The position numbers and the translations under genes are program-made. Below the pieces are notes generated by a model. The model ran no database searches. It had not been told where the DNA came from and saw nothing but the letters and a program-made list of their open reading frames with translations. From positions 41,336 to 105,335 of the forward strand of contig CAYXXF010000021.1 of the NCBI GenBank assembly GCA_964469005.1: a stretch of DNA of 64,000 bases, read 5' to 3'. The DNA comes from an uncultured Anaerolineales bacterium. GTDB taxonomy: Bacteria; Chloroflexota; Anaerolineae; UBA4142; SHND01. Shown here piece by piece: positions 4,459 to 58,206 of the stretch. Each line of letters begins with the position of its first letter. Position 1 is the stretch's first letter.

Positions 4459-5895
4459 ATGAGCAGTACCCCACTGCGCGATTTCCTCGAAATTCCGTAC
4501 GCGCAACTCGAGGAAATGAATCTGAACGCCAAAGCGCAGCGTATCAATCGCGTTCCCGTTGACATTGTTCAAGAGGAACGAATAAAGTATTTGACCGACG
4601 AGACGCGCATCAAAGCCGTCACGGTCTGTTTCACCGACCTCGAAGGTCGTCTCCACATGCTCGATTACGACAAAAAGTTTTTGTTGAAATCGGCAGACAA
4701 TCTCACATTCGACGGTTCCTCTGTGCGCGGTTTTTCGGCGCAGCGCGAATCCGATTTGCGTCTCGGCATAGACTGGCACGCCTTTTACTGGCTTCCCGCC
4801 GACATCTTTGGTCCGGGCAAAGTCTTGGTCTTTGGCGATGTGTTCGAACGCGACGGCTCGCCCTACTCTGCCGACATGCGCGCGAAAATGAAACAGTTTT
4901 CGCAAGCGTTGTACGACAAAGACGGAACGCAATGCAACGCCGCGAACGAAATTGAAGGATTCATTTTCAACGGACGCGACGCCGAACGCCGTTACTACGA
5001 AACAGGTCAATTTGAATTTGTCAGCACCGGCGGTTATTACCATTCACTGCCGGGCGACCCGCTGCGTCAATTCATTGACACCGCCGCCGAAGTCCAACGC
5101 GCGATGGGTTTCCAAAACGAAAAAGACCATCCCGAAGTCGCACCCGCACAATTTGAAATGAACTATGGACATACCGAAGCATCCATCGCTGCCGACCAAG
5201 TGCAGTTGTACAAATTGATTTGCCGCCAAGTGGCGAGTCGCCTCGATATGAGTGCATCGTTCTTGCCCAAACCGGTGACAGGCGTGAACGGCAACGGAAT
5301 GCACACCAACCTTTCCGTTTCGCGCAAAGGCAAAAATCTTTTCTGGGATGCTGACGGCGACGAACACTTGTCAAAATTCGCATGGAATTTTGTGGACCGC
5401 ATTCTGACGAGCGGCGAACAAGTGTGTCTCGTGTTCAATTCGAGTGTCAATTCGTATCGCCGCCTCGACCCGCACTTTGAAGCGCCGAACCAAATCAAAG
5501 TCTCGCCGATTGACCGCGGGGCAATGATTCGCATTCCAATCGGCAACGAAAAATCTGCGCGCGTTGAGGTGCGTTCTATCGCGCCCGATGCGAATCCGTA
5601 CATGGCGATTTACACCATGCTCAAAACGGGACTCGAAGGACCGCTCGCGAAAAATGCGTCCGAACTGCGCGACCAAAAACGCTATCTCTCGGACAACATT
5701 TACGACGCCATCGCGCACTTCAAGGAAAGCAAATTCTTGCGCAGTGCGCTAGGCGACGAAGTGTGCGAAAAATTTGCCGAACTCAAACTCGCTTCCGCCG
5801 AACGTTGTCCCAAAGCGCTCGGCACACGCATCAAACGCGCCGAAGTGATGTTCCACCACGAAGTGCAGAACCAGTACTTGTGGAGTCAATTCTAA
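4459..5895 (+). CDS. glnA: Glutamine synthetase
   Basis: Motifs FDGSSVRGF, HPEVAPAQFEM, FLPKPVTGVNGNGMHTNLS, NSYRRLDPHFEAP, RGAMIRIP, RVEVRSIAPDANPY. AGGAG RBS before ATG 4459. Confidence 0.93.
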   Translation: MSSTPLRDFLEIPYAQLEEMNLNAKAQRINRVPVDIVQEERIKYLTDETRIKAVTVCFTDLEGRLHMLDYDKKFLLKSADNLTFDGSSVRGFSAQRESDLRLGIDWHAFYWLPADIFGPGKVLVFGDVFERDGSPYSADMRAKMKQFSQALYDKDGTQCNAANEIEGFIFNGRDAERRYYETGQFEFVSTGGYYHSLPGDPLRQFIDTAAEVQRAMGFQNEKDHPEVAPAQFEMNYGHTEASIAADQVQLYKLICRQVASRLDMSASFLPKPVTGVNGNGMHTNLSVSRKGKNLFWDADGDEHLSKFAWNFVDRILTSGEQVCLVFNSSVNSYRRLDPHFEAPNQIKVSPIDRGAMIRIPIGNEKSARVEVRSIAPDANPYMAIYTMLKTGLEGPLAKNASELRDQKRYLSDNIYDAIAHFKESKFLRSALGDEVCEKFAELKLASAERCPKALGTRIKRAEVMFHHEVQNQYLWSQF

Positions 5896-5899
5896 ATCC

Positions 5900-5939
5900 A
5901 AAAAACCTTCGAGGTCTTTGACCCCGAAGGTTTTTTTTT
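5900..5939 (+). terminator. Palindromic repeat acting as a rho-independent terminator after glnA
   Basis: AAAAACCTTCGAGGTC-TTT-GACCCCGAAGGTTTTT followed by a T run. Confidence 0.75.
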
Positions 5940-6046
5940 GACCTGTCGAAAAATCAATTTCTCATTCGTCGTATGAGTGAAAGCAACAATTAATTCAAAG
6001 CGGTAGGACAAATCTGAAATTTGTCCTAACCAAAGGAGCAACCCAA

Positions 6047-9810: not shown

Positions 9811-11592
9811 TTCATCAATGGTGAGTGCGCGCGTTTTTTGAAAAATTATCGGCTGTGGATGGTCGTACACGGAAAAACTTTCGTCGGCGGGGCGGACATT
9901 TGTCACAGAAAAATTTTTTTCAAGCATCGAGTTGACTTGGAGCGAGTCAAATTTTAATCCGGCAAAAGGATTATCACGAAGAGTAACTCCAAATAAAGTT
10001 GGGTCGTTGCGCGTCGTGAACATTGGTTCAAAACCCAAATCACCGTTAAATAATTTTTCGTAATAGCGATTCATCATCGGATACCGCGCGGGTAATTTGC
10101 CGACGCTGGCGTAACCGCGTTGGCTCGCAAGAATAATGACATCTGCGCGCGCAATTGCCTCTGCCAATTGCGCGCGTTTTTCATTCGTGTCATCGTCGAA
10201 AATTGGAAATTGGATTTGGGTATATTCCGAACCGCGTCGTTCACCATTTTCAAAACGAATCATTGTGGGCAGCGCATCATCCCATTGTTCAATCAGCAAC
10301 GTTTTCCCAACAGGCACATTTTGATAGAGCCAACGCGATGCCGTGAGCCAAGGATGCTCGCGCGCATAAATCTGTGTGAATGCAAGGGAATAGAGAAACG
10401 AGAGTGCGAGAAGCGAGAAAACGAGAATCGCCGGAACAACGCGTCGTTTTGCGAATACGCGCGTGAACGCGCATACTGCCATGATGTACAAAATTGGCAG
10501 CAGGGGCAACAAGTAACGCAGATATTTGGTGTACTGCAAACCAATCGTTACAAAATAAATCAGCGCGAACGACAACACAAATGCATCGCGCCAGTCGCGC
10601 GATTTCCACCACTGCGCGACAAATAACACTCCCCCGCCCCACGCGAAAATTCCCAACGGCAAGCCCATGCCCCAAATTGCGCCTTGTGTAACTTGATACA
10701 CAAACGGAATTGTTCCCGCATACTGGCGCGTGTACGGATAATCCAACCACCCGCGCGCCACAAACGCTTCACGAATCACATCGCTTCCGAATGCGTACCA
10801 ATCGAACAGCGCGTACGGCTGTGTCACAACAAAGATAACAAACGCTATGCCGCAAATTTGCAAAAACGGTTTGCGCGTCGCCCGCCAAATTTCCATAATA
10901 CGCGCGCGCGAAAATTTTAAGGTTGGCGCATTCGTCACAAGCGCGCACGCATAAAAAATTGGAACGATGAGCGGCAATGCAGTAATTTTTGTAGCGAGCG
11001 CGAGTCCAAAAGAGATTCCACAGAGAATTTTAAAAGTTCGTGATGCGATAGTGTCTTGCGCTACACGAAACGCGCAATACAGCGTCGCCATTGTAAGAAA
11101 TGTCAGTAAGGTGTCCACCGCGTAAAAGTGCGACAATTGAATATGCAGTACTGTCACGGCAACACACGCGGCAGCAAGCAGACCGATGCGCGCGGCATAA
11201 ATTTTTTTGCCGAGCGCGTACGTCAACGCAATCGTTCCCAAATCAAACAGTCCCGAAAGAAAACGTCCGAGCAACACCCAGCGCGCGAGGTCGTCATTCG
11301 CCCAAGGTCCGACGATATTCGTCGGCGGCGCAAAAGGGACAAGCACGCGCAAGAGATAAATCGGGAACGAGCCGTACGCGAAAAATTTCGGATTGAGCAA
11401 ACTTGCAGGGGAAAAAATTTCGAGCGCGTTGGCAGGAAATTGCAATGCGGAAACGACGAGGAGAATCTGGCGTTCGTCAGGATGAAACAAATAGCCATTG
11501 TCCCAGCCCAAACCCGTCCATCGAAAATACGCGGCGATGCCGAGAATCAACGCAAGGAAAAAAATTTCAACGCGGCGAGAGGGGTGACGCAT
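9790..11592 (-). CDS. ArnT/PMT-like GT-C membrane glycosyltransferase (GT39-like)
   Basis: FHPDER, FFAYGSFP, GRFLSGLFD, HIQLSHFYAVD, GLALATK. Multi-TM with a C-terminal extracytoplasmic domain. TACAAT lies 8 nt upstream of ATG 11592. Confidence 0.85.
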   Translation of the reverse strand: MRHPSRRVEIFFLALILGIAAYFRWTGLGWDNGYLFHPDERQILLVVSALQFPANALEIFSPASLLNPKFFAYGSFPIYLLRVLVPFAPPTNIVGPWANDDLARWVLLGRFLSGLFDLGTIALTYALGKKIYAARIGLLAAACVAVTVLHIQLSHFYAVDTLLTFLTMATLYCAFRVAQDTIASRTFKILCGISFGLALATKITALPLIVPIFYACALVTNAPTLKFSRARIMEIWRATRKPFLQICGIAFVIFVVTQPYALFDWYAFGSDVIREAFVARGWLDYPYTRQYAGTIPFVYQVTQGAIWGMGLPLGIFAWGGGVLFVAQWWKSRDWRDAFVLSFALIYFVTIGLQYTKYLRYLLPLLPILYIMAVCAFTRVFAKRRVVPAILVFSLLALSFLYSLAFTQIYAREHPWLTASRWLYQNVPVGKTLLIEQWDDALPTMIRFENGERRGSEYTQIQFPIFDDDTNEKRAQLAEAIARADVIILASQRGYASVGKLPARYPMMNRYYEKLFNGDLGFEPMFTTRNDPTLFGVTLRDNPFAGLKFDSLQVNSMLEKNFSVTNVRPADESFSVYDHPQPIIFQKTRALTIDELSALLK

Positions 11593-20986: not shown

Positions 20987-22735
20987 CTATTTGCCATTCA
21001 CAATTGGGTTGAACAATGGACCACTGTAGCATGGATACGCGCGCGGATTATAAATTCCGTTTTCTAGTACAACATCCGCCCAACAGTATTCTTTGTTCGG
21101 CGTGTTGTCGTTTTTCAATTGCGCGACGTACCACAACACAAGATTCGTGTTGCCAATCGCTTCGTCGTTCAAAAATTTTTCGGGACCCTGACGAAAATCG
21201 GTGTTGCAGCACGGACCTATCGTCGGTAAATCCGACGCGCCCTCGTCGCGGTTTGGGTCATTGCGCGTGACAAACACCATCGCATTGTCACCGCGTTCAT
21301 ATTTTGAAAATTGCAGGCGTCCGGTTTGCATATTAAAGCCCGCGCCTTGCGCGTTCACAATGCGAAACGAAACACCCGCGTCATTTTCGGGAACGTCGGC
21401 GGCAAGTTTCCATTGTTCCGTTTCCCAATTTTTCCACGCGCCGTTCGACCATTCCGCAAACGTGAATGGCTGCGCCCACTCGATGCGTGTGACGGGGCGA
21501 TACGTTCCTTCGGTGCCGCAGCCGCGTCCGAGATTTGCCGCAATGAGCCGAAAACTGCCATCGTCATGAAATTGAAAACGCTGCTGGTAATAATAATTAC
21601 ACGGCAGGGGCCAGAACTCGCTGAAAAAATCTTGCACGAGTTCAAAGCCAATGCGTTTGCCGTCTTGCATCAAATCCAAAACTTGCGGTCCCGTGAACGC
21701 GACGACAGCCGCTTGCGAAAAAACGGGACAACCAATTGCATCACTGTATCCGAAACCTTCACCCGTCGAATAGCTCACATGCCAATCCACGACTTTGGCG
21801 CTCGTCAAAATTTTGTTGCCTTGATATTCCACGTCCGAAACGCGCAAACCATCGGAACTCGTCAAGATAAAATTCATTTTCCAAGCGCCGTTCGCCAACG
21901 CGTTTTCCTTTTCACAAAAATTCGCGGCAACGACATCATTTTGCAGCGTGCGTTCGGTGAGCGGCGGACCATTGAGCGAACCGAGATTCGTCCAACGCGT
22001 GCCGACCAAAACATTGTCCGTCAAATCTACAATCGCCCACAACGCGCGGTCACCCACTTTGAACGTCGGTGCCAGACAATAATGCAGTGAGCGTTCGCAT
22101 TGCGACGCCTTGAGCGATGTTTTTGTATTCGCCATCATTGCCTGCGCGTTATCGGGCGTGTAACCCAATGCCTGCTGCACTTGCGGAGAATTTTTGGCAA
22201 TCTCGATTGCCAGATCCACCAACGCTTGCGGCGGGTCGGGCTGGGTGTTTTCGTATTGATTGATTGCCATCACACGCTGCGTATTCAATTCCACAATCGC
22301 GGCGGTTAAAAGATTCAACGCATAATTGTACATTTCCACGCGATAACATTTCGTCGTGCGACAAATCGCGGCTTGTCCCACAAAATCACTTGCGCGCAAT
22401 GGCACCACACCAAAAATTTCCGCGCGCAATGTTTTACCATCGCCCGTCCGCGTGTTCTCCGTAAAGCGCGGGTCACGCAGTGCAATGATTTGCGCGTCAG
22501 CGCGTTCGCCGTCCAAACCGAGCAGCGGCAGCACCGCGCCATTTTTCAGCGCATCCGCAACCTGAAACTGCCGCGTCGCCACAACGGGAAGCAACGCACT
22601 TGGCGTTTCCCGCACCGCAAGCACACCGGCTTCAATCGTTGGCGTCGGCGGAACGCGCGTGGGCAGCGGTTGCCCACAGGCGACAAGAAAAACGAGAGAA
22701 ACGAAAAACGAAAAAATGAGACCACGAACCATCAT
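20987..22735 (-). CDS. Lipoprotein with copper-amine-oxidase-like sequence motifs, lacking recognisable Cu-ligand histidines
   Basis: Lipobox LVAC. ATG 22735 overlaps the avd TGA. CAO-like segments: AIVELNTQRV..TQPDPP..AIEIAKNSPQVQQALG, WKMNF..SDGLRVSDVEY.G..IL, YSD, CNYYY..FQFHDDGSF, TNLVLWY. Confidence 0.6.
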   Translation of the reverse strand: MMVRGLIFSFFVSLVFLVACGQPLPTRVPPTPTIEAGVLAVRETPSALLPVVATRQFQVADALKNGAVLPLLGLDGERADAQIIALRDPRFTENTRTGDGKTLRAEIFGVVPLRASDFVGQAAICRTTKCYRVEMYNYALNLLTAAIVELNTQRVMAINQYENTQPDPPQALVDLAIEIAKNSPQVQQALGYTPDNAQAMMANTKTSLKASQCERSLHYCLAPTFKVGDRALWAIVDLTDNVLVGTRWTNLGSLNGPPLTERTLQNDVVAANFCEKENALANGAWKMNFILTSSDGLRVSDVEYQGNKILTSAKVVDWHVSYSTGEGFGYSDAIGCPVFSQAAVVAFTGPQVLDLMQDGKRIGFELVQDFFSEFWPLPCNYYYQQRFQFHDDGSFRLIAANLGRGCGTEGTYRPVTRIEWAQPFTFAEWSNGAWKNWETEQWKLAADVPENDAGVSFRIVNAQGAGFNMQTGRLQFSKYERGDNAMVFVTRNDPNRDEGASDLPTIGPCCNTDFRQGPEKFLNDEAIGNTNLVLWYVAQLKNDNTPNKEYCWADVVLENGIYNPRAYPCYSGPLFNPIVNGK

Positions 22736-23085
22736 GCTGTGTCTGCTCCACCTTTGTTCAACCAACCGCCAAGCAAACGCCCCACCTCATTCGTGAGGCG
22801 CGCACTGTGTTCGAATCCTGCCGCGTCTAATAATTGCAACTCGCTAGCCAAACGCAAATTGGTTCGCAATTCCGCCAGTTCGATATCCGCACGCGTCAAC
22901 GCGTCGCGCTTGTGGTTCACGTTTTTCACTTTCGCGGCGAACAATAACGCGCGCTGCAAATCGAACGCATTACTCTGTATGCGTGTCGCCAGCGAGAAAC
23001 GATATTCGCGCGAAAATTTCAACGTGCGCGGCAAGAGCCACAAAAGTAATTCATACGTTTTGACGAAAATGGGAGATTCCATCAT
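22732..23085 (-). CDS. avd: DGR accessory variability determinant (Avd, four-helix bundle)
   Basis: 117 aa. SPIFVKTYELLLWL, KFSREYRFSLATRI, LRTNLRLASEL, EVGRLLGGW. ATG 23085 overlaps the RT stop (ATGA). Confidence 0.92.
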   Translation of the reverse strand: MMESPIFVKTYELLLWLLPRTLKFSREYRFSLATRIQSNAFDLQRALLFAAKVKNVNHKRDALTRADIELAELRTNLRLASELQLLDAAGFEHSARLTNEVGRLLGGWLNKGGADTA

Positions 23086-24137
23086 AGCGGCATCGCGTGG
23101 AATAATTTCGCGCGCAAGCGTTTCGTATTCCCATGCCGCGCGTGGGCAATCCACGCCTGCGTCGAACGGTCGAGCGTTTCGAAATCAATTTCGCGTGTTT
23201 GATACGCGCGCGTCAATTTACGAAATCGTTCCACAAAATCGCACACATTGTCGCGTTTCAAGCGGCGGCGTTCGGGATACACGCGCCAGCCCAAAAAGGG
23301 AATGCCGTTGTGTACGGGATAAACTACCGTTTTGCGCGGATGCGTCACGAGGCGCAGCGTTTGTAAAAATTTCTCGATGGCTGCGCGCCATTCCCATAGT
23401 ACGCGTTTCTCGTTCGAGAACAAAACAAAATCATCCACGTAACGCACATACGCTTTTACTTTTAATTCCCGTTTCACAAATTGGTCCAACTCGTTCAAAT
23501 ACACATTCGCCCAAAATTGCGAGGTGAGATTGCCGATGGGCAACCCGCGCGGACGATTGACGGCGAATAAATCATCGTCCGGGAAATACTGCATGATGTA
23601 CTGGTCACGATGAATTTCCGCGCCGCTCGCCAAAATTTTTTCAATCAGCCACAACACCTGTTCATCGGCGATAGGACGCGCGAGAATTTTGAAAAGAATC
23701 GCGTGGTCAATCGAAGGGAAACACTGCGCAATGTCGCCTTGTAACGCGTATTTATATTTTTGTGAAAAATCCTGCGCGCGGTCGAGCGCGCGGTGGGTCC
23801 CCTTCTTTTTGCGATTCGCATACGAGTCAAAAATAAATTTGCGTTCGAATATCGGTTCAATAATGTTGCAGAGCGCGTGATGCACCACGCGGTCACGAAA
23901 CGGCGCCGCGCTCACCAAGCGTTTTTTGCGGTCATCCAAACGAAAACTGTGATACGCGCCCGGCGTGTACGTTTGCGCGCGTAACTCTTCTTGCAGTTGC
24001 AGCAATTCGTCCTCAAAATTGAATTCGAATCGAAACACCTGCTGCTTGTCGCGCTTGCCGCGCCGCGCTTTATAGTACGCGTTCAACAAATTCGCGAACG
24101 TGTTGATTTGTGGATAGAGTTCGTCGTAACGTTTCAT
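23082..24137 (-). CDS. DGR-class reverse transcriptase
   Basis: 351 aa. KKRLVSAAPFRDRVVHHAL, GTHRAL, GDIAQCFPSIDH, GLPIGNLTSQFWANVYL (DGR-type SQ motif), YVRYVDDF, FLG. No maturase or endonuclease domain. Confidence 0.96.
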   Translation of the reverse strand: MKRYDELYPQINTFANLLNAYYKARRGKRDKQQVFRFEFNFEDELLQLQEELRAQTYTPGAYHSFRLDDRKKRLVSAAPFRDRVVHHALCNIIEPIFERKFIFDSYANRKKKGTHRALDRAQDFSQKYKYALQGDIAQCFPSIDHAILFKILARPIADEQVLWLIEKILASGAEIHRDQYIMQYFPDDDLFAVNRPRGLPIGNLTSQFWANVYLNELDQFVKRELKVKAYVRYVDDFVLFSNEKRVLWEWRAAIEKFLQTLRLVTHPRKTVVYPVHNGIPFLGWRVYPERRRLKRDNVCDFVERFRKLTRAYQTREIDFETLDRSTQAWIAHARHGNTKRLRAKLFHAMPL

Positions 24138-24176
24138 CTTTGTACACCTGTCGGCTACCTATCCCTCACCCCCCTA

Positions 24177-24201
24177 CCCCCTCTCCCAAAGGGAGAGGGG
24201 G
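24177..24201. repeat. Hairpin CCCCCTCTCCC-AAA-GGGAGAGGGGG between target and RT
   Basis: Perfect 11-bp stem, 3-nt loop. Confidence 0.7.
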
Positions 24202-24232
24202 AGAAATCAAAAGCGCAGCTAGCTGGAGGGTG

Positions 24233-24266
24233 AGACCTTTCGGGTTTTCGGAAACCCGAAAGGTCT
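24233..24266. repeat. Perfect 15-bp hairpin (family A palindrome) downstream of VR
   Basis: AGACCTTTCGGGTTT-TCGG-AAACCCGAAAGGTCT. Confidence 0.75.
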
Positions 24267-24307
24267 GTCCTTCCAACACCTATCCGCTTACATCCTCCCC
24301 ACCGCGA

Positions 24308-24335
24308 CAGAAAACAGAATTCAGAATTCAGAATA
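24308..24335 (-). repeat. Degenerate heptamer array just after the target stop codon
   Basis: Minus strand: TATTCTG AATTCTG AATTCTG TTTTCTG. Confidence 0.65.
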
Positions 24336-24342
24336 CAACTGC

Positions 24343-27036
24343 CTAACGGAACGACTCGGCAACGCGAAACCCGTCATCGTTGTAGCGGTCGCGCGGGACG
24401 CTGTAGTAGCGGCCCGCGGCGCGGGCGTCGTCGGAATCATAGATGAACGAGCCGCCGCGTAGAACCTTGGTGTCCTTATCATAATCGCTGCTCGTCCATT
24501 CCCAAACATTGCCACACATATCCAACGCGCCGCAAGGACTCGCGCCCTCCAGAAAAATGCCCACAGGTGAAGTGCCGCCCAAACCCAACTCGCGTGTATT
24601 CGCTTTTTGTTTTTCGAACTCGTCGCCCCAAGGATATTTGCGTCCATCGGTTCCCCGCGCCGCGCGTTCCCATTCCTGTTCCGTCGGCAAACGAAATTTT
24701 CGTTTCGTCGTTTGGCTCAACCATTCGCAGTATGCCACAGCATCATGCCACGAAACGCCGCGCACAGGATAATTGGAACGCGCTGGCGCAAAACTGCGTG
24801 TTGTCTCATCCCATTCAAAACCTGGGACGGCATGCTGCATCGCGTCAACAAACTTTTTGTATTGCTGATTCGTCACGAGATATTTGGCGATACGGAAGGG
24901 CTGTTCAATTTTTTCCGCGCGTTTTTCATCGCCGTACAAAAATTCGCCTGCAGGAACGTCGAGCATTTCATCAAAATTGCGCGGGTCGCCCAATTTTCCC
25001 AACGCTTGCGCAGCCGCAAGCCGCACGCGAAATTCTGAATCGGTATCAACGATGGCGACAAGCGTCGGCACAAATTGCGACAGCGCAAGTTCATTCATCA
25101 ATTCCGCCGCGCGCGCGCGTTCGACGCCGTCAGTGGTTTCACGCGCGCGCGCAATGTGTTGCAAACGTTCCAGCGTCTCGTCGCGCCAACGCGCTTGAAG
25201 CATCACTTTTTCGGTCAAGGCGCGCGCGGCAGTGAACACACTCGCGGCGCGCGGCGAATGTAACAATTGTTCCGCAATGAAATTCGCGTGTTCATGCGGC
25301 GGCATCGCCATATACAAGAGGGTCACTTCTTCCCAAACGGGATTCGCCAAACTATCGAGCAGCGGCGTCGGCACGCCAAGCGTTTTCGACAACGCATCCG
25401 CCGCGAGATATTCTTGAAACGTGAGATGCGAAAACGTGACGAGTCCTTCGCCCGTTTCTTTATCTGTGCCGATTTCGCGCAAGATGCCGCTCTCTTGTTT
25501 CACGCCCTCGAGCCAAGCCTGCGCTTTTTCCACACATGCCAGATAACGCGCGTTCGGTTCTGCGGGCAGCAGCGCGGGAATCAAGTTTGGCAAATGGTCG
25601 GCAATGATACGTTCGGCGCGAGTGCGTAACAGTGGGACTTGTCCTTCGCTCCCATCAGAGCGCTGCTGTTGAATTTCCAACGCCAACGCGCGCAGCAAAA
25701 TAATTTTTTGTTCCAAATTCAACTCGTCGCGGCGCGCGCTCGCCAATTGCAATTCGCCTTTTTTGCGGTCACGCCAACGTTCGGTGAGAATCTCGACGCA
25801 ATCGCGATACAGGATGTGGCGTTCCTCAGGAAACTCCAAACGCACGGAATGAACCAACACAATCAACGAAAGCAAAAGCGGGTTTTCGGCAAGGTCGCGC
25901 AAGCGCGTATTGCGATTCAAAACCGCTTTCAAGCGCGCAGCGCGTTCCGCATAATCACGTTCCAAAAATTTTTTGCGCGCCTCCGCTTCGCCCACACCGT
26001 CGCGAATCGCATAGGCGCGATACAATTGTTCCACCAACCGCACGCTGTCGCGCGGCGTCAAGGGCTGGACGGTTTGTTCCGCGAAACCCAGCGCGCCAAG
26101 TTGTCCTTCGTATCCCACTTTGCGCGTGGTCGCGAGAAAACGATTTTTACGTTCGCCATACGCATTCAACAAACCCGCGACATGCTCCGCCATCGCTTGA
26201 CGCGCGCCCGGACTGCCCAATTCGTCGAACGCGTCAAGCAGCACAATACAGTCGCCGCGTTCCAAACGATGTTTGAAAAAATCGGGCGGACACGGCACCA
26301 AAATCTGCCGCGCAAATTCATCTTGAAACGCGTCAAGCAAGGTTCGTGTTTTGCCCCAACCCAACACATCGCTTTGTCTGCCCAACGAAACAAAAATCGG
26401 AAACGGGCGCGTTTTCCAACCGAGACGTTCGCGCACCAAATTGCGCGCATCGCCTTCACGCGGCTTGTTCCGCCGCGCCCGCGCGCACGTCACTGCGAGA
26501 TATTTCAGCAAGGTTGTTTTACCGGACCCCGGGTCGCCGCGAATCACGAGACGCGGAAATTGTTCAAGTGTACGCCCAAGTTCACTCCCGTATTGTTTTG
26601 GTTCGGGACGAAAGCGTTCGGGAACGAAACGCCACAACCCGCGCGGGCGATACATACGCCCCATCCGTTGGTCCAAAATAAAGAGGTCAGTGTCCTCACG
26701 CGGCTCACTTTGTCCCGTTCCCGTCAAGCGCAATTCCACAAACACTTTTTCCAATTCCGCGCCTTGCGCGCTCGGCACATTTGCCGCAATGTTGCTGGGC
26801 AATAATCCCAACGACATGTTGCGCTGAATCATCCAATCCAAATAGGCGCGCTCAAACTTGTAATCGGCGCCGCGTCCGCTCGCAAAGGCGAACAACGCTT
26901 CACCGCCTCTTTGTATTTGGCGGAGCAGCCACGGTACAAGTTCGCGCAAAAACAACCCAAGAAAAAAAAGAATGACCCCGACAATCAGCGCGTTGCTGCC
27001 ATAATTTTTGATGAATTCGTCAAGCCAAGTAGGCAT
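24343..27036 (-). CDS. DGR target: TM-NACHT NTPase-HEAT-FGE-sulfatase (CLec-fold) protein
   Basis: TM at about aa 16-36. Walker A GDPGSGKT, Walker B VLLDAFDE, FLATTR, NPLLL, FSHLTFQEYLAA. HEAT RVRLAAAQALGKLGDPR. FGE motifs VTNQQY, VSWHDAVAYCEWL, RLPTEQEWERAARG, MCGNVWEW, RGGS, GFRV. Confidence 0.92.
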   Translation of the reverse strand: MPTWLDEFIKNYGSNALIVGVILFFLGLFLRELVPWLLRQIQRGGEALFAFASGRGADYKFERAYLDWMIQRNMSLGLLPSNIAANVPSAQGAELEKVFVELRLTGTGQSEPREDTDLFILDQRMGRMYRPRGLWRFVPERFRPEPKQYGSELGRTLEQFPRLVIRGDPGSGKTTLLKYLAVTCARARRNKPREGDARNLVRERLGWKTRPFPIFVSLGRQSDVLGWGKTRTLLDAFQDEFARQILVPCPPDFFKHRLERGDCIVLLDAFDELGSPGARQAMAEHVAGLLNAYGERKNRFLATTRKVGYEGQLGALGFAEQTVQPLTPRDSVRLVEQLYRAYAIRDGVGEAEARKKFLERDYAERAARLKAVLNRNTRLRDLAENPLLLSLIVLVHSVRLEFPEERHILYRDCVEILTERWRDRKKGELQLASARRDELNLEQKIILLRALALEIQQQRSDGSEGQVPLLRTRAERIIADHLPNLIPALLPAEPNARYLACVEKAQAWLEGVKQESGILREIGTDKETGEGLVTFSHLTFQEYLAADALSKTLGVPTPLLDSLANPVWEEVTLLYMAMPPHEHANFIAEQLLHSPRAASVFTAARALTEKVMLQARWRDETLERLQHIARARETTDGVERARAAELMNELALSQFVPTLVAIVDTDSEFRVRLAAAQALGKLGDPRNFDEMLDVPAGEFLYGDEKRAEKIEQPFRIAKYLVTNQQYKKFVDAMQHAVPGFEWDETTRSFAPARSNYPVRGVSWHDAVAYCEWLSQTTKRKFRLPTEQEWERAARGTDGRKYPWGDEFEKQKANTRELGLGGTSPVGIFLEGASPCGALDMCGNVWEWTSSDYDKDTKVLRGGSFIYDSDDARAAGRYYSVPRDRYNDDGFRVAESFR
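24350..24461 (-). repeat. DGR variable repeat (VR), the 3' end of the target gene
   Basis: Ungapped 112-bp match to 27269-27380 with 18 mismatches, all opposite TR adenines. Encodes RGGSFIYDSDDARAAGRYYSVPRDRYNDDGFRVAES. Confidence 0.97.
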
Positions 27037-27268
27037 TGGTGTACCCGTCTCAAACGTGACAGGTCGAGCGAACTTGGTTCGCCACGAGACACTGTCACGT
27101 TTGAGAATTGGAGAGGAACTTCTGGCTCCAACCCTGCGGAGGGAGCCAGACCGTACCTTTTTGTCTCACGCGAAATACATCGCGCCGAGACCGGACAGAG
27201 CTGTCATGTTCCGTTGGCTCGCGGCGGCGCGTCACGTTTGACCCACCACATTTCTGAGCGCAAATGAA
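27037..27268 (-). ncRNA. Putative structured DGR spacer RNA downstream of TR
   Basis: 232 nt with several stems: 15-bp inverted repeat 27048-27062/27092-27106 enclosing GCGAAC-TTG-GTTCGC, 9-bp TCTGGCTCC/GGAGCCAGA (27121-27150), and GTCTC-CGCGA/TCGCG-GAGAC (27163-27191). Confidence 0.5.
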
Positions 27269-27380
27269 AATGATTCGGCAACGCGAAACCCGTTATTGTT
27301 GTTGCGGTTGTGCGGGTTGTTGTTGTTGCGGTTCGCGGCGCGGGCGTTGTCGGATTCATTGTTGAACGAGCCGCCGCGTA
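27269..27380 (-). ncRNA. DGR template repeat (TR)
   Basis: In the target frame it reads RGGSFNNESDNARAANRNNNNPHNRNNNNGFRVAES, with 13 AAY codons. 34 adenines, 18 of which differ in VR. Confidence 0.97.
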
Positions 27381-27406
27381 TTTTGTTCGCGCCGTCCTTG
27401 GCGGTG

Positions 27407-27415
27407 ATTGTAGCA
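27407..27415 (-). promoter_or_regulatory. Extended -10 promoter for the TR/DGR transcript
   Basis: TGCTACAAT on the minus strand, 26 nt upstream of the TR homology boundary. Confidence 0.55.
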
Positions 27416-27435
27416 TGATTGAGGCGGAAATTCGG

Positions 27436-27550
27436 GCGAATTAAATTCGCAACAACAACAACGCGAAACGTCCCTACGGGCGTTGGGAGGTGGATGGTGT
27501 CTAGTCTGCGGAGGCAGACTTGCGTCTTTGTTGCGGTGATTTCAATCGCC
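27436..27550. repeat. Composite symmetric REP-like element at the DGR right boundary
   Basis: Four short hairpins in A-B...B'-A' order: GCGAAT/ATTCGC, AACG.CCC/GGGCGTT, AGTCTGC/GCAGACT, GGTGATT/AATCGCC. Confidence 0.55.
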
Positions 27551-35175: not shown

Positions 35176-35477
35176 CTCCATCATTACTTTATGAACATGT
35201 TCAAGTTGACGCGAGTAGTGTACCCTTCATCGCGGGAACCACGATGAAGGTGGTAGAGCTGGTGATGGCGCAGTTGGCTTATGGTTGGAGTCCCGAAGAG
35301 TTGTATTTTCAGCATCCCTATTTGTCATTGGGACAAATTCATTCCGCACTCGCGTATTATTGGGACCATAAAGCTGAACTCGATGCCGATATTGAATGTC
35401 GTTCGAAATTTGCAGACGACGCGAGACAGCAAGCAGGAACTTCACCACTCGCACAAAAAGTGCGCGCGCAGGGATAG
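35172..35477 (+). CDS. DUF433-domain protein (antitoxin-like HTH)
   Basis: GTTMKVVELV..GWSPEEL..HPYLSLGQIHSALAYYWDH. Confidence 0.88.
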   Translation: MTPSLLYEHVQVDASSVPFIAGTTMKVVELVMAQLAYGWSPEELYFQHPYLSLGQIHSALAYYWDHKAELDADIECRSKFADDARQQAGTSPLAQKVRAQG

Positions 35478-36491
35478 ATGCCAAAACGCGTCTATATCGC
35501 CTACACGGGCGGAACGATTGGAATGATTGATGCAGGCGAAGGATACGCGCCTGCGCCGGGATTTCTTGAGCAGCGTTTGCGCGAAATGCCTGAACTGCGC
35601 GACGCGGCGATGCCCGAAATTGTTTTGCACGAATACACTCCCCTGCTCGATTCCTCCAACATGACCCCGCGCGAATGGCTTGCCATCGCGCGGGATATTT
35701 TTTTGAATTATGACGCGTTTGATGGCTTTGTCGTTTTGCACGGCACGGATACGATGGCGTACACGGCATCTGCGCTGCCATTTCTTTTGCAAGGACTGAA
35801 CAAGCCCGTCATCCTCACGGGTTCACAAATTCCCCTCATCGAATTGCGGAATGATGCGCGCGAAAACCTAATCACCGCGCTTTTGCTCGCGGCAAATTAT
35901 GCCATTCCTGAAGTGTGTTTGTATTTTGGCGCGAAATTATTTCGTGGCTGCCGCACGGCAAAAGTGAGCGCGTTGGGATTCGATGCGTTCGATTCACCCA
36001 ACTATCCGCCGCTCGGAAATGTGGGAATAGATATTCAGTTGAATTGGAATTTGATTCGCGCGGCATCGGAAAAAATTTTGTCTGCGCCGCCGAACGAATT
36101 GAACGCAACGATTGCATCACTGCGCTTGTTCCCCGGCATCTCGGCAGAATTTTTGCGCAATGTTTTGAAACCACCGCTGCAAGGTTTGGTGTTGGAAGCA
36201 TACGGCACAGGCAACGCGCCGAATCACGATAAAGAATTTCTGAACGCGTTGCAAGAAGCAACCGCGCGCGGTGTTGTGATTGTAGATTGCACACAATGTC
36301 TGCGCGGCGCCGTAAAATTGAACGCGTATGCGACAGGCGCGGCATTGCTCGATGTTGGCGTTGTGAGTGGCGCGGACATGACGCCGATTGCGGCACTTAC
36401 GAAATTGAATTATCTCATTAGCACCGGTCATTCATTTCAAGAAACGCGCGCGTTGATGCAGCAAGATTTGTGTGGTGAAATTTCAGTTTGA
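35478..36491 (+). CDS. ansA: Type I (cytoplasmic) L-asparaginase
   Basis: YTGGTIGM, LLDSSNMTP, HGTDTMAYTAS, PVILTGSQIP, GLVLEAYGTGNAP, DMTPIAALTKL. Confidence 0.95.
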   Translation: MPKRVYIAYTGGTIGMIDAGEGYAPAPGFLEQRLREMPELRDAAMPEIVLHEYTPLLDSSNMTPREWLAIARDIFLNYDAFDGFVVLHGTDTMAYTASALPFLLQGLNKPVILTGSQIPLIELRNDARENLITALLLAANYAIPEVCLYFGAKLFRGCRTAKVSALGFDAFDSPNYPPLGNVGIDIQLNWNLIRAASEKILSAPPNELNATIASLRLFPGISAEFLRNVLKPPLQGLVLEAYGTGNAPNHDKEFLNALQEATARGVVIVDCTQCLRGAVKLNAYATGAALLDVGVVSGADMTPIAALTKLNYLISTGHSFQETRALMQQDLCGEISV

Positions 36492-58112: not shown

Positions 58113-58206
58113 GGGGGTAGTTTCGTCCCGGTGGGCGGCGCGGTCTTCAAAATCGTTGCGAGGCGGTGGTACCGTCTTGGGTGGGTTCGACTCCCATCTA
58201 CTCCCG
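58113..58206 (+). tRNA. selC: tRNA-Sec (UCA)
   Basis: 8-bp acceptor stem (GGGGGTAG/CTACTCCC), G discriminator, 6-bp D stem with 4-nt loop, anticodon loop CTTCAAA, long variable arm, 5-bp T stem with TTCGACT. CCA is not encoded. Confidence 0.95.

Follow-up and report, generated by a model that had tools for sequence, protein, structure and literature searches.

A permuted and probably complete diversity-generating retroelement with an NLR-like target in an uncultured Anaerolineales bacterium

In a 64,000-nt stretch of DNA from an uncultured Anaerolineales bacterium (assembly GCA_964469005.1, contig CAYXXF010000021.1, positions 41,336–105,335; hereafter the window), a 112-nt sequence occurs in two similar copies close to a reverse transcriptase (RT) gene. 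Does this locus represent a complete diversity-generating retroelement (DGR), and which protein would it diversify? We know of no other prokaryotic system of targeted protein hypermutation. The original prediction, made from the letters of the sequence, had proposed a complete DGR acting on a host protein, and the analysis described here indicates that the locus is very probably a complete cellular DGR that diversifies an NLR-like target. DGRs diversifying NACHT/STAND proteins with a C-type-lectin (CLec) domain have been published from filamentous and multicellular bacteria, including Chloroflexi (Dore et al. 2024, PMC10907252), and the locus is a new member of this described kind, set apart by its unusual permuted layout.

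The primary evidence is the pattern of differences between the template repeat (TR) and the variable repeat (VR). Re-alignment on the coding (minus) strand (27380–27269 against 24461–24350) was ungapped over 112 nt and returned the pair exactly as predicted, with all 18 mismatches at TR adenines (11 A>G and 7 A>T). The TR consists of 34 A, 40 C, 23 G and 15 T, and the hypergeometric probability that all 18 would land on A is 7.8e-12. Mismatches at other bases had been named as evidence against a DGR; the 78 non-A positions show none, and this absence speaks for recent homing. The pair was also recovered independently by a repeat search (family D1, 84%). In the target frame the TR holds 13 AAY codons, the number previously counted; 12 of these are altered in the VR and no stop is created. 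Of the 18 changes in the aligned 112 nt, 16 are at codon positions 1 and 2, and the remaining two, close to the 3' end, are A>G at third positions and silent. The 15^13 variants calculated from these codons hold as a theoretical ceiling but not as an observed repertoire. Four further TR adenines just 5' of the boundary also differ from the VR, so that the 5' edge of the repeats is placed only to within about 4 nt. When the whole genome was searched by BLAST with the TR, as proposed earlier for finding remote VRs, no further VR for this TR came back; the other matches differ by mixed mismatches and are parts of two other TR/VR systems. In a genome where FGE-domain C-termini are paralogous, a repeat that arose by chance or duplication and has no link to retrohoming might be suspected, but these C-termini show mixed mismatch types, while the pair in the window is A-only at the probability given above and adjoins RT, Avd and spacer RNA. 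That explanation is refuted, and we regard its probability as negligible.

The predicted intact DGR-type RT and Avd protein were both borne out. DGR RTs carry IGxxxSQ in motif 4, where group II and retron RTs have QGxxxSP, together with YxDD; P0002 matches RVT_1 (PF00078) at 81.5 bits, and its motifs LPIGNLTSQ and YVDD can be read in the sequence. It clusters with RTs that all adjoin A-only TR/VR pairs. Avd matches PF22296 (bAvd) at 63.5 bits (cut-off 40) and, at the borderline, NF033474 (DGR-Avd) at 79.8 bits (cut-off 80). The avd ATG overlaps the RT stop codon (ATGA), and the Avd stop overlaps in the same way (ATGA, 22732–22735) the start of a downstream gene for a 582-aa lipoprotein (20987–22735). 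The remaining component is a structured RNA. A covariance model (R1) was built from the TR-flanking spacers of 12 relatives, the window being excluded; downstream of their TRs, the window and its relatives share the motif CAGAAAUG followed by three helices, and 20 of the 24 predicted pairs show compensatory changes among the 12 relatives. The sole R1 match in the window (27260–27117, minus strand; 42 bits, E = 1.7e-11) begins 9 nt after the TR and retains all three helices, and no Rfam family matches the spacer. With this match directly after the TR, the template RNA module looks intact, and the TR–spacer module is conserved although RT and Avd are not adjacent to it. The A-only repeat pair, RT, Avd and conserved spacer RNA mean that all parts of a DGR are present and intact, and together they support the signature of mutagenic retrohoming recognised at the outset.

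If the element works as these parts suggest, a transcript from upstream of 27380 (minus strand) would carry the TR and the structured spacer RNA, and would probably continue into the target, RT and avd genes. RT and Avd would bind the TR–spacer RNA and make cDNA in which adenines are copied unfaithfully; the cDNA would replace the VR, the last 38 codons of the target gene, and up to 13 AAY-coded positions and a few more would be rewritten on the ligand-binding face of the CLec/FGE-fold domain. Current activity and co-transcription are both inferred; in favour of activity are intact open reading frames (ORFs), coupled RT/Avd and Avd/lipoprotein overlaps, an intact spacer and the lack of non-A drift. 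A recently silenced relic, in which a rearrangement split the TR from RT–Avd and loss of the canonical VR-proximal GC hairpin made homing inefficient, would have to accommodate these same observations, including the overlaps that are still coupled and the three helices of the spacer, and DGR parts can function in trans (PMC5758913). We consider a relic unlikely, but several features do count against an active element: no second case of the gene order was seen among 40 related loci, the spacer falls below the two other spacers of the genome in score (60 and 91 bits), a scan for sigma-70 promoters upstream of the TR gave no match at its threshold, and the canonical short GC-rich hairpin is missing after the VR, where the only hairpin is longer, REP-like and 75 nt away. 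By the criterion used, a DGR hairpin or cruciform is GC-rich and lies 4–34 nt downstream of the VR; such a hairpin raises homing in the Bordetella phage system (PMC3240598). The coordinates of the parts are collected in Table 1.

Table 1. Parts of the retroelement and associated features (columns: feature; position in the window, or in the contig named; strand; basis)
Approximate extent of the cassette, missing at the empty lipoprotein–arsA site of two same-genus genomes	22735–27450		genome comparison
Avd accessory protein, 117 aa	22732–23085	-	PF22296, NF033474
DGR reverse transcriptase P0002, 351 aa	23082–24137	-	profile search and motifs
Hairpin, 24-nt arms, 4-nt loop, downstream of VR	24224–24275		inverted-repeat search
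Four TTCTG repeats in an array of 7-nt period, beginning 14 nt past the end of VR homology	24308–24335	-	sequence
Target gene P0001, 897 aa, hydrophobic segment + NACHT + HEAT + FGE/C-type lectin	24343–27036	-	ORF and profile searches
Variable repeat (VR), codons 859–896, ending 4 nt short of the TAG stop	24350–24461	-	alignment with TR
Inverted repeat, 15-nt arms, 11 nt upstream of the target ATG	27048–27106	-	read from sequence
Spacer RNA module, beginning with CAGAAAUG	27117–27260	-	covariance model R1
Template repeat (TR), 112 nt	27269–27380	-	alignment and repeat search
Second DGR of the genome (contig C18), with Avd and an RT 57% identical to the window RT	VR 35377–35497; TR 36021–36141; spacer 36173–36322		

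The protein that would be diversified, P0001, has a single hydrophobic segment (aa 16–34, Kyte-Doolittle 2.41) and a NACHT match (PF05729, 32.3 bits against a cut-off of 26.7) that covers the P-loop stretch only, with Walker A (GDPGSGKT, aa 167) and Walker B (IVLLDAFDE, aa 264) both intact. HEAT repeats follow at aa 629–690 (HEAT_2 above cut-off), and the C-terminus (aa 689–893) is an FGE-sulfatase/C-type-lectin domain (E = 4.6e-47). This domain matches FGE-family structures and the Treponema DGR variable protein 2Y3C (E = 1.3e-6) by sequence, and its predicted fold resembles the FGE family (Foldseek, E down to 1e-12), the model being of medium confidence (pLDDT 63.6, pTM 0.69). Catalytic FGE has a cysteine pair in the C-terminal segment that follows the RGGS motif, at the position seen in human FGE. 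No cysteine follows GNVWEW in either P0001 or the translated TR; the pair needed for catalysis is thus missing, and the domain is a binding scaffold and not an enzyme. P0001 is a singleton in 90% clusters. From its sequence it reads as an NLR-like protein with an N-terminal membrane anchor, a NACHT ATPase, HEAT repeats and a variable CLec sensor, and it is most likely a cytoplasmic, membrane-tethered sensor whose specificity can be re-drawn by the cell.

A sensor or defence role is suggested by analogy. NACHT/STAND-CLec targets have been proposed to serve the conflict systems of multicellular bacteria as antigen sensors diversified by DGRs (PMC10907252), and the clade 5 DGRs described there (clade 5D in particular) resemble the present locus in being chromosomal, in having RT and Avd, in hosts that include filamentous Chloroflexi, in several DGRs per genome including RT-less loci, and in targets with a central NACHT NTPase, a single C-terminal CLec VR and an N-terminal extension without known domain. 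Close relatives of the window also carry two targets per cassette, as in clade 5D. The present locus differs in having one target, a TR upstream of the target instead of beside RT/Avd, and HEAT repeats between NACHT and CLec; the likeness drawn here is one of architecture. The bacterial NACHT/Avs (STAND) antiphage proteins share the P-loop NACHT with Walker A and B, the C-terminal sensor module and the tripartite NLR logic, but their sensors are TPR-like repeats and not a hypermutable CLec domain, and P0001 has neither a recognised effector nor a curated family match. These last points weigh against a defence function: residues 1–160 match no Pfam, NCBIfam or PADLOC model that would indicate an N-terminal effector domain, and no curated defence family was found for P0001, with PADLOC returning only mad8 (E = 5e-5) and the NCBIfam model EruA scoring 28.9 bits (cut-off 1000). 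Neighbouring defence genes are also missing, and in one study cyanobacterial DGR targets are read as regulatory proteins (PMC7517822). It is a real possibility, although not the reading we favour, that the DGR is genuine but that its target serves a filamentous bacterium in signalling, regulation or self/kin recognition. Two points speak for a sensor instead: a NACHT NTPase joined to a variable C-terminal binding domain is the architecture of NLR/STAND sensors, and conflict systems are the reading proposed in print for this DGR lineage (PMC10907252). A DGR coupled to an NLR-like ATPase would suggest that multicellular bacteria have an anticipatory immunity based on receptor diversification, as has already been proposed in print.

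Two better-known DGRs bear on the individual parts. The Bordetella phage BPP-1 element (mtd-avd-TR-brt), the mechanistic prototype, has the same adenine-specific transfer from TR to VR, AAY codons, Avd, a structured spacer RNA 3' of the TR and a VR at the 3' end of a gene with C-type-lectin fold. The element in the window differs in being cellular, in its order TR-target-RT-Avd, in having as target an FGE-type CLec fused to an ATPase where the phage has a tail-fibre protein, and in having a TCTG array in place of a short GC hairpin with a GRNA loop 4–34 nt from the VR. TvpA of Treponema denticola (the 2Y3C protein matched above) shares the FGE-subtype C-type-lectin fold with the VR at its C-terminal end, but is a surface lipoprotein consisting of the CLec domain alone, whereas the CLec domain of P0001 is one module, at the C-terminus, of a NACHT protein of 897 aa.

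How the permuted order arose can be approached through the relatives. On the minus strand the cassette reads TR-target-RT-Avd, while among the 40 related loci 20 have VR-RT-Avd-TR and 11 have VR-Avd-TR-RT. Some of the closest relatives carry two targets in the order targetA-RT-Avd-TR-targetB (loci L001 and L018, and L017 by partial matches). In the closest relative, targetB, which lies downstream of the TR, is 46% identical to P0001 along the full length, and targetA 30%. P0001 is accordingly the orthologue of targetB, and the order in the window is thus a cyclic permutation of RT-Avd-TR-targetB, a part of the usual target-RT-Avd-TR(-target) order of the lineage. Direct repeats such as the VR 3' flanks of L001 could excise a circle of RT-Avd-TR-targetB. 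No Avd remnant was found upstream of the TR by tblastn. In L001 the two targets are near-identical for more than 100 nt beyond VR and stop (5875–5990 and 10683–10800), a stretch that takes in TCTG array and hairpin, and therefore implies recent duplication or gene conversion of a VR-plus-flank module. In a close relative from a same-genus genome (L017/L072; G002, C98) the TR is apparently interrupted by a palindromic insert of about 60 nt (GACACGTCGTCACGCA...TGCGTGACGACGTGTC).

The boundaries of the cassette follow from two same-genus genomes in which the lipoprotein gene and arsA are directly adjacent. Because of this empty site, the ~4.7-kb cassette is an insertion at this position, and it appears to have been gained here as a block or else lost elsewhere. 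The left edge is the lipoprotein start codon that overlaps the Avd stop; the right edge is uncertain and falls within 27420–27540. At the empty site the lipoprotein gene has its own upstream region of 160–220 nt, and the insertion therefore replaced that region; the gene is now probably expressed from the DGR operon. The inverted repeat just upstream of the target gene may act as an attenuator or as a structure occluding the ribosome-binding site. The locus is thus a compact, single-target and apparently intact example with a defined template RNA and, owing to the empty site, clear boundaries. These features together make it well suited to being reconstituted in a laboratory host.

Insertion relative to congeners would also suit a DGR carried by a phage or mobile element and diversifying a receptor-binding protein. 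The inserted block contains only TR, target, RT and Avd, and no phage, integrase or transposase genes were found within it or near the cassette, where the neighbours are housekeeping genes (LepA, enoyl-CoA hydratase, a radical-SAM enzyme, a DUF11 surface protein, ArsA, a PLP decarboxylase and others). GC content is unremarkable and matches the genome. RT relatives at 55–71% identity are all cellular and from Anaerolineales/Chloroflexota; such RTs occur in 31 of 61 related genomes, often several per genome, and the nearest related genome reaches 71% with none closer. In a maximum-likelihood tree the window RT falls in a clade with five Anaerolineales RTs (support 100/99), nested in a Chloroflexota group apart from two phage DGR RTs, and phage RTs are at most 39% identical to it. 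With a NACHT ATPase bearing an N-terminal anchor as target, a phage or mobile origin is very improbable, and the element is cellular in ancestry. The earlier view that no phage or integrase genes lie nearby and that a host protein is diversified agrees with these neighbours and with the NACHT-HEAT-CLec target, and the RT placement that had been called for points the same way. The description of the element as domesticated stands as far as its chromosomal location and the grouping of its RT with cellular Chloroflexota RTs are concerned, but is tempered by the two congeners with an empty site and by the choice between gain as a block and loss elsewhere.

The genome carries two further TR/VR pairs. 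On contig C18 (35377–37364) there is a second complete DGR in the classic order VR-Avd-TR-RT, with 22 of 22 mismatches at A. A third pair lies on contig C11 (163558–164185; TR 163872–163994, VR 163558–163680) and has 15 of 15 mismatches at A; its spacer RNA is the best-scoring in the genome (91 bits), neither RT nor Avd was found within 4 kb, and it is presumably served in trans by the RT of another DGR.

All three VRs of the genome are followed by a TCTG array (in the window, at C18:35506+ and at C11:163686+). In the lineage these arrays consist of 4–6 repeats with a period of 7–9 nt and lie directly downstream of the VR, before a GC hairpin; the relatives retain this hairpin after the array. 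An array was found at 17–18 of the 20 VRs first examined and, in an independent sample of related genomes including Nitrospirota relatives, at 24 of 31 VRs against 0 of 31 TRs. A description of the array was sought and none turned up among the papers that were searched, and the array may be new. Tentatively, and with less confidence than the other conclusions, the array could label the VR as the recipient copy in this cellular DGR lineage, as a cis element not described before. Separately, the permuted cassette could have moved as a circle, excised when two VR-plus-flank repeats recombined. The array next to the VR and the covarying spacer RNA offer handles on target recognition by cellular DGRs, which is poorly understood. 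An explanation of the array as TGA stops in all frames was rejected, as many arrays read TCTGG, and pairing of a spacer CAGAAAU with the TTCTG array was set aside because three loci with a variant spacer motif (L022, L023 and L026) retain TCTG arrays and there is no covariation. The genome has 21 TCTG arrays in total, and the 18 located away from DGRs are often just upstream of start codons. The core of the window hairpin (GACCTTTCGGGTTTCCGAAAACCCGAAAGGTC) is a small, REP-like repeated palindrome with at least three copies in the genome, including C1:455521–455555 and C11:142680–142715.

The assembly of the locus was checked against independent per-run Logan contigs, which reproduce the RT-Avd-lipoprotein and TR-arsA junctions at 100%. 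The contigs of SRR14932608 and SRR14932609 carry RT and arsA at 100% identity and break at 24262 and 27074, both inside palindromes, the latter being the centre of the inverted repeat upstream of the target gene. Contigs of relatives often start 70–270 nt before the RT (G019:C116:70, G019:C9:82, G058:C239:104, G022:C122:110, G002:C84:210), at the place expected for the VR or its hairpin, and it seems that palindromes or heterogeneity close to the VR interrupt the assemblies. The VR 3' flank had no exact match in JGI metagenomes. Elsewhere in the window, the only Rfam match is a tRNA-Sec gene at 58113–58206 (RF01852, 67.9 bits), for which ARAGORN gives the anticodon TCA.

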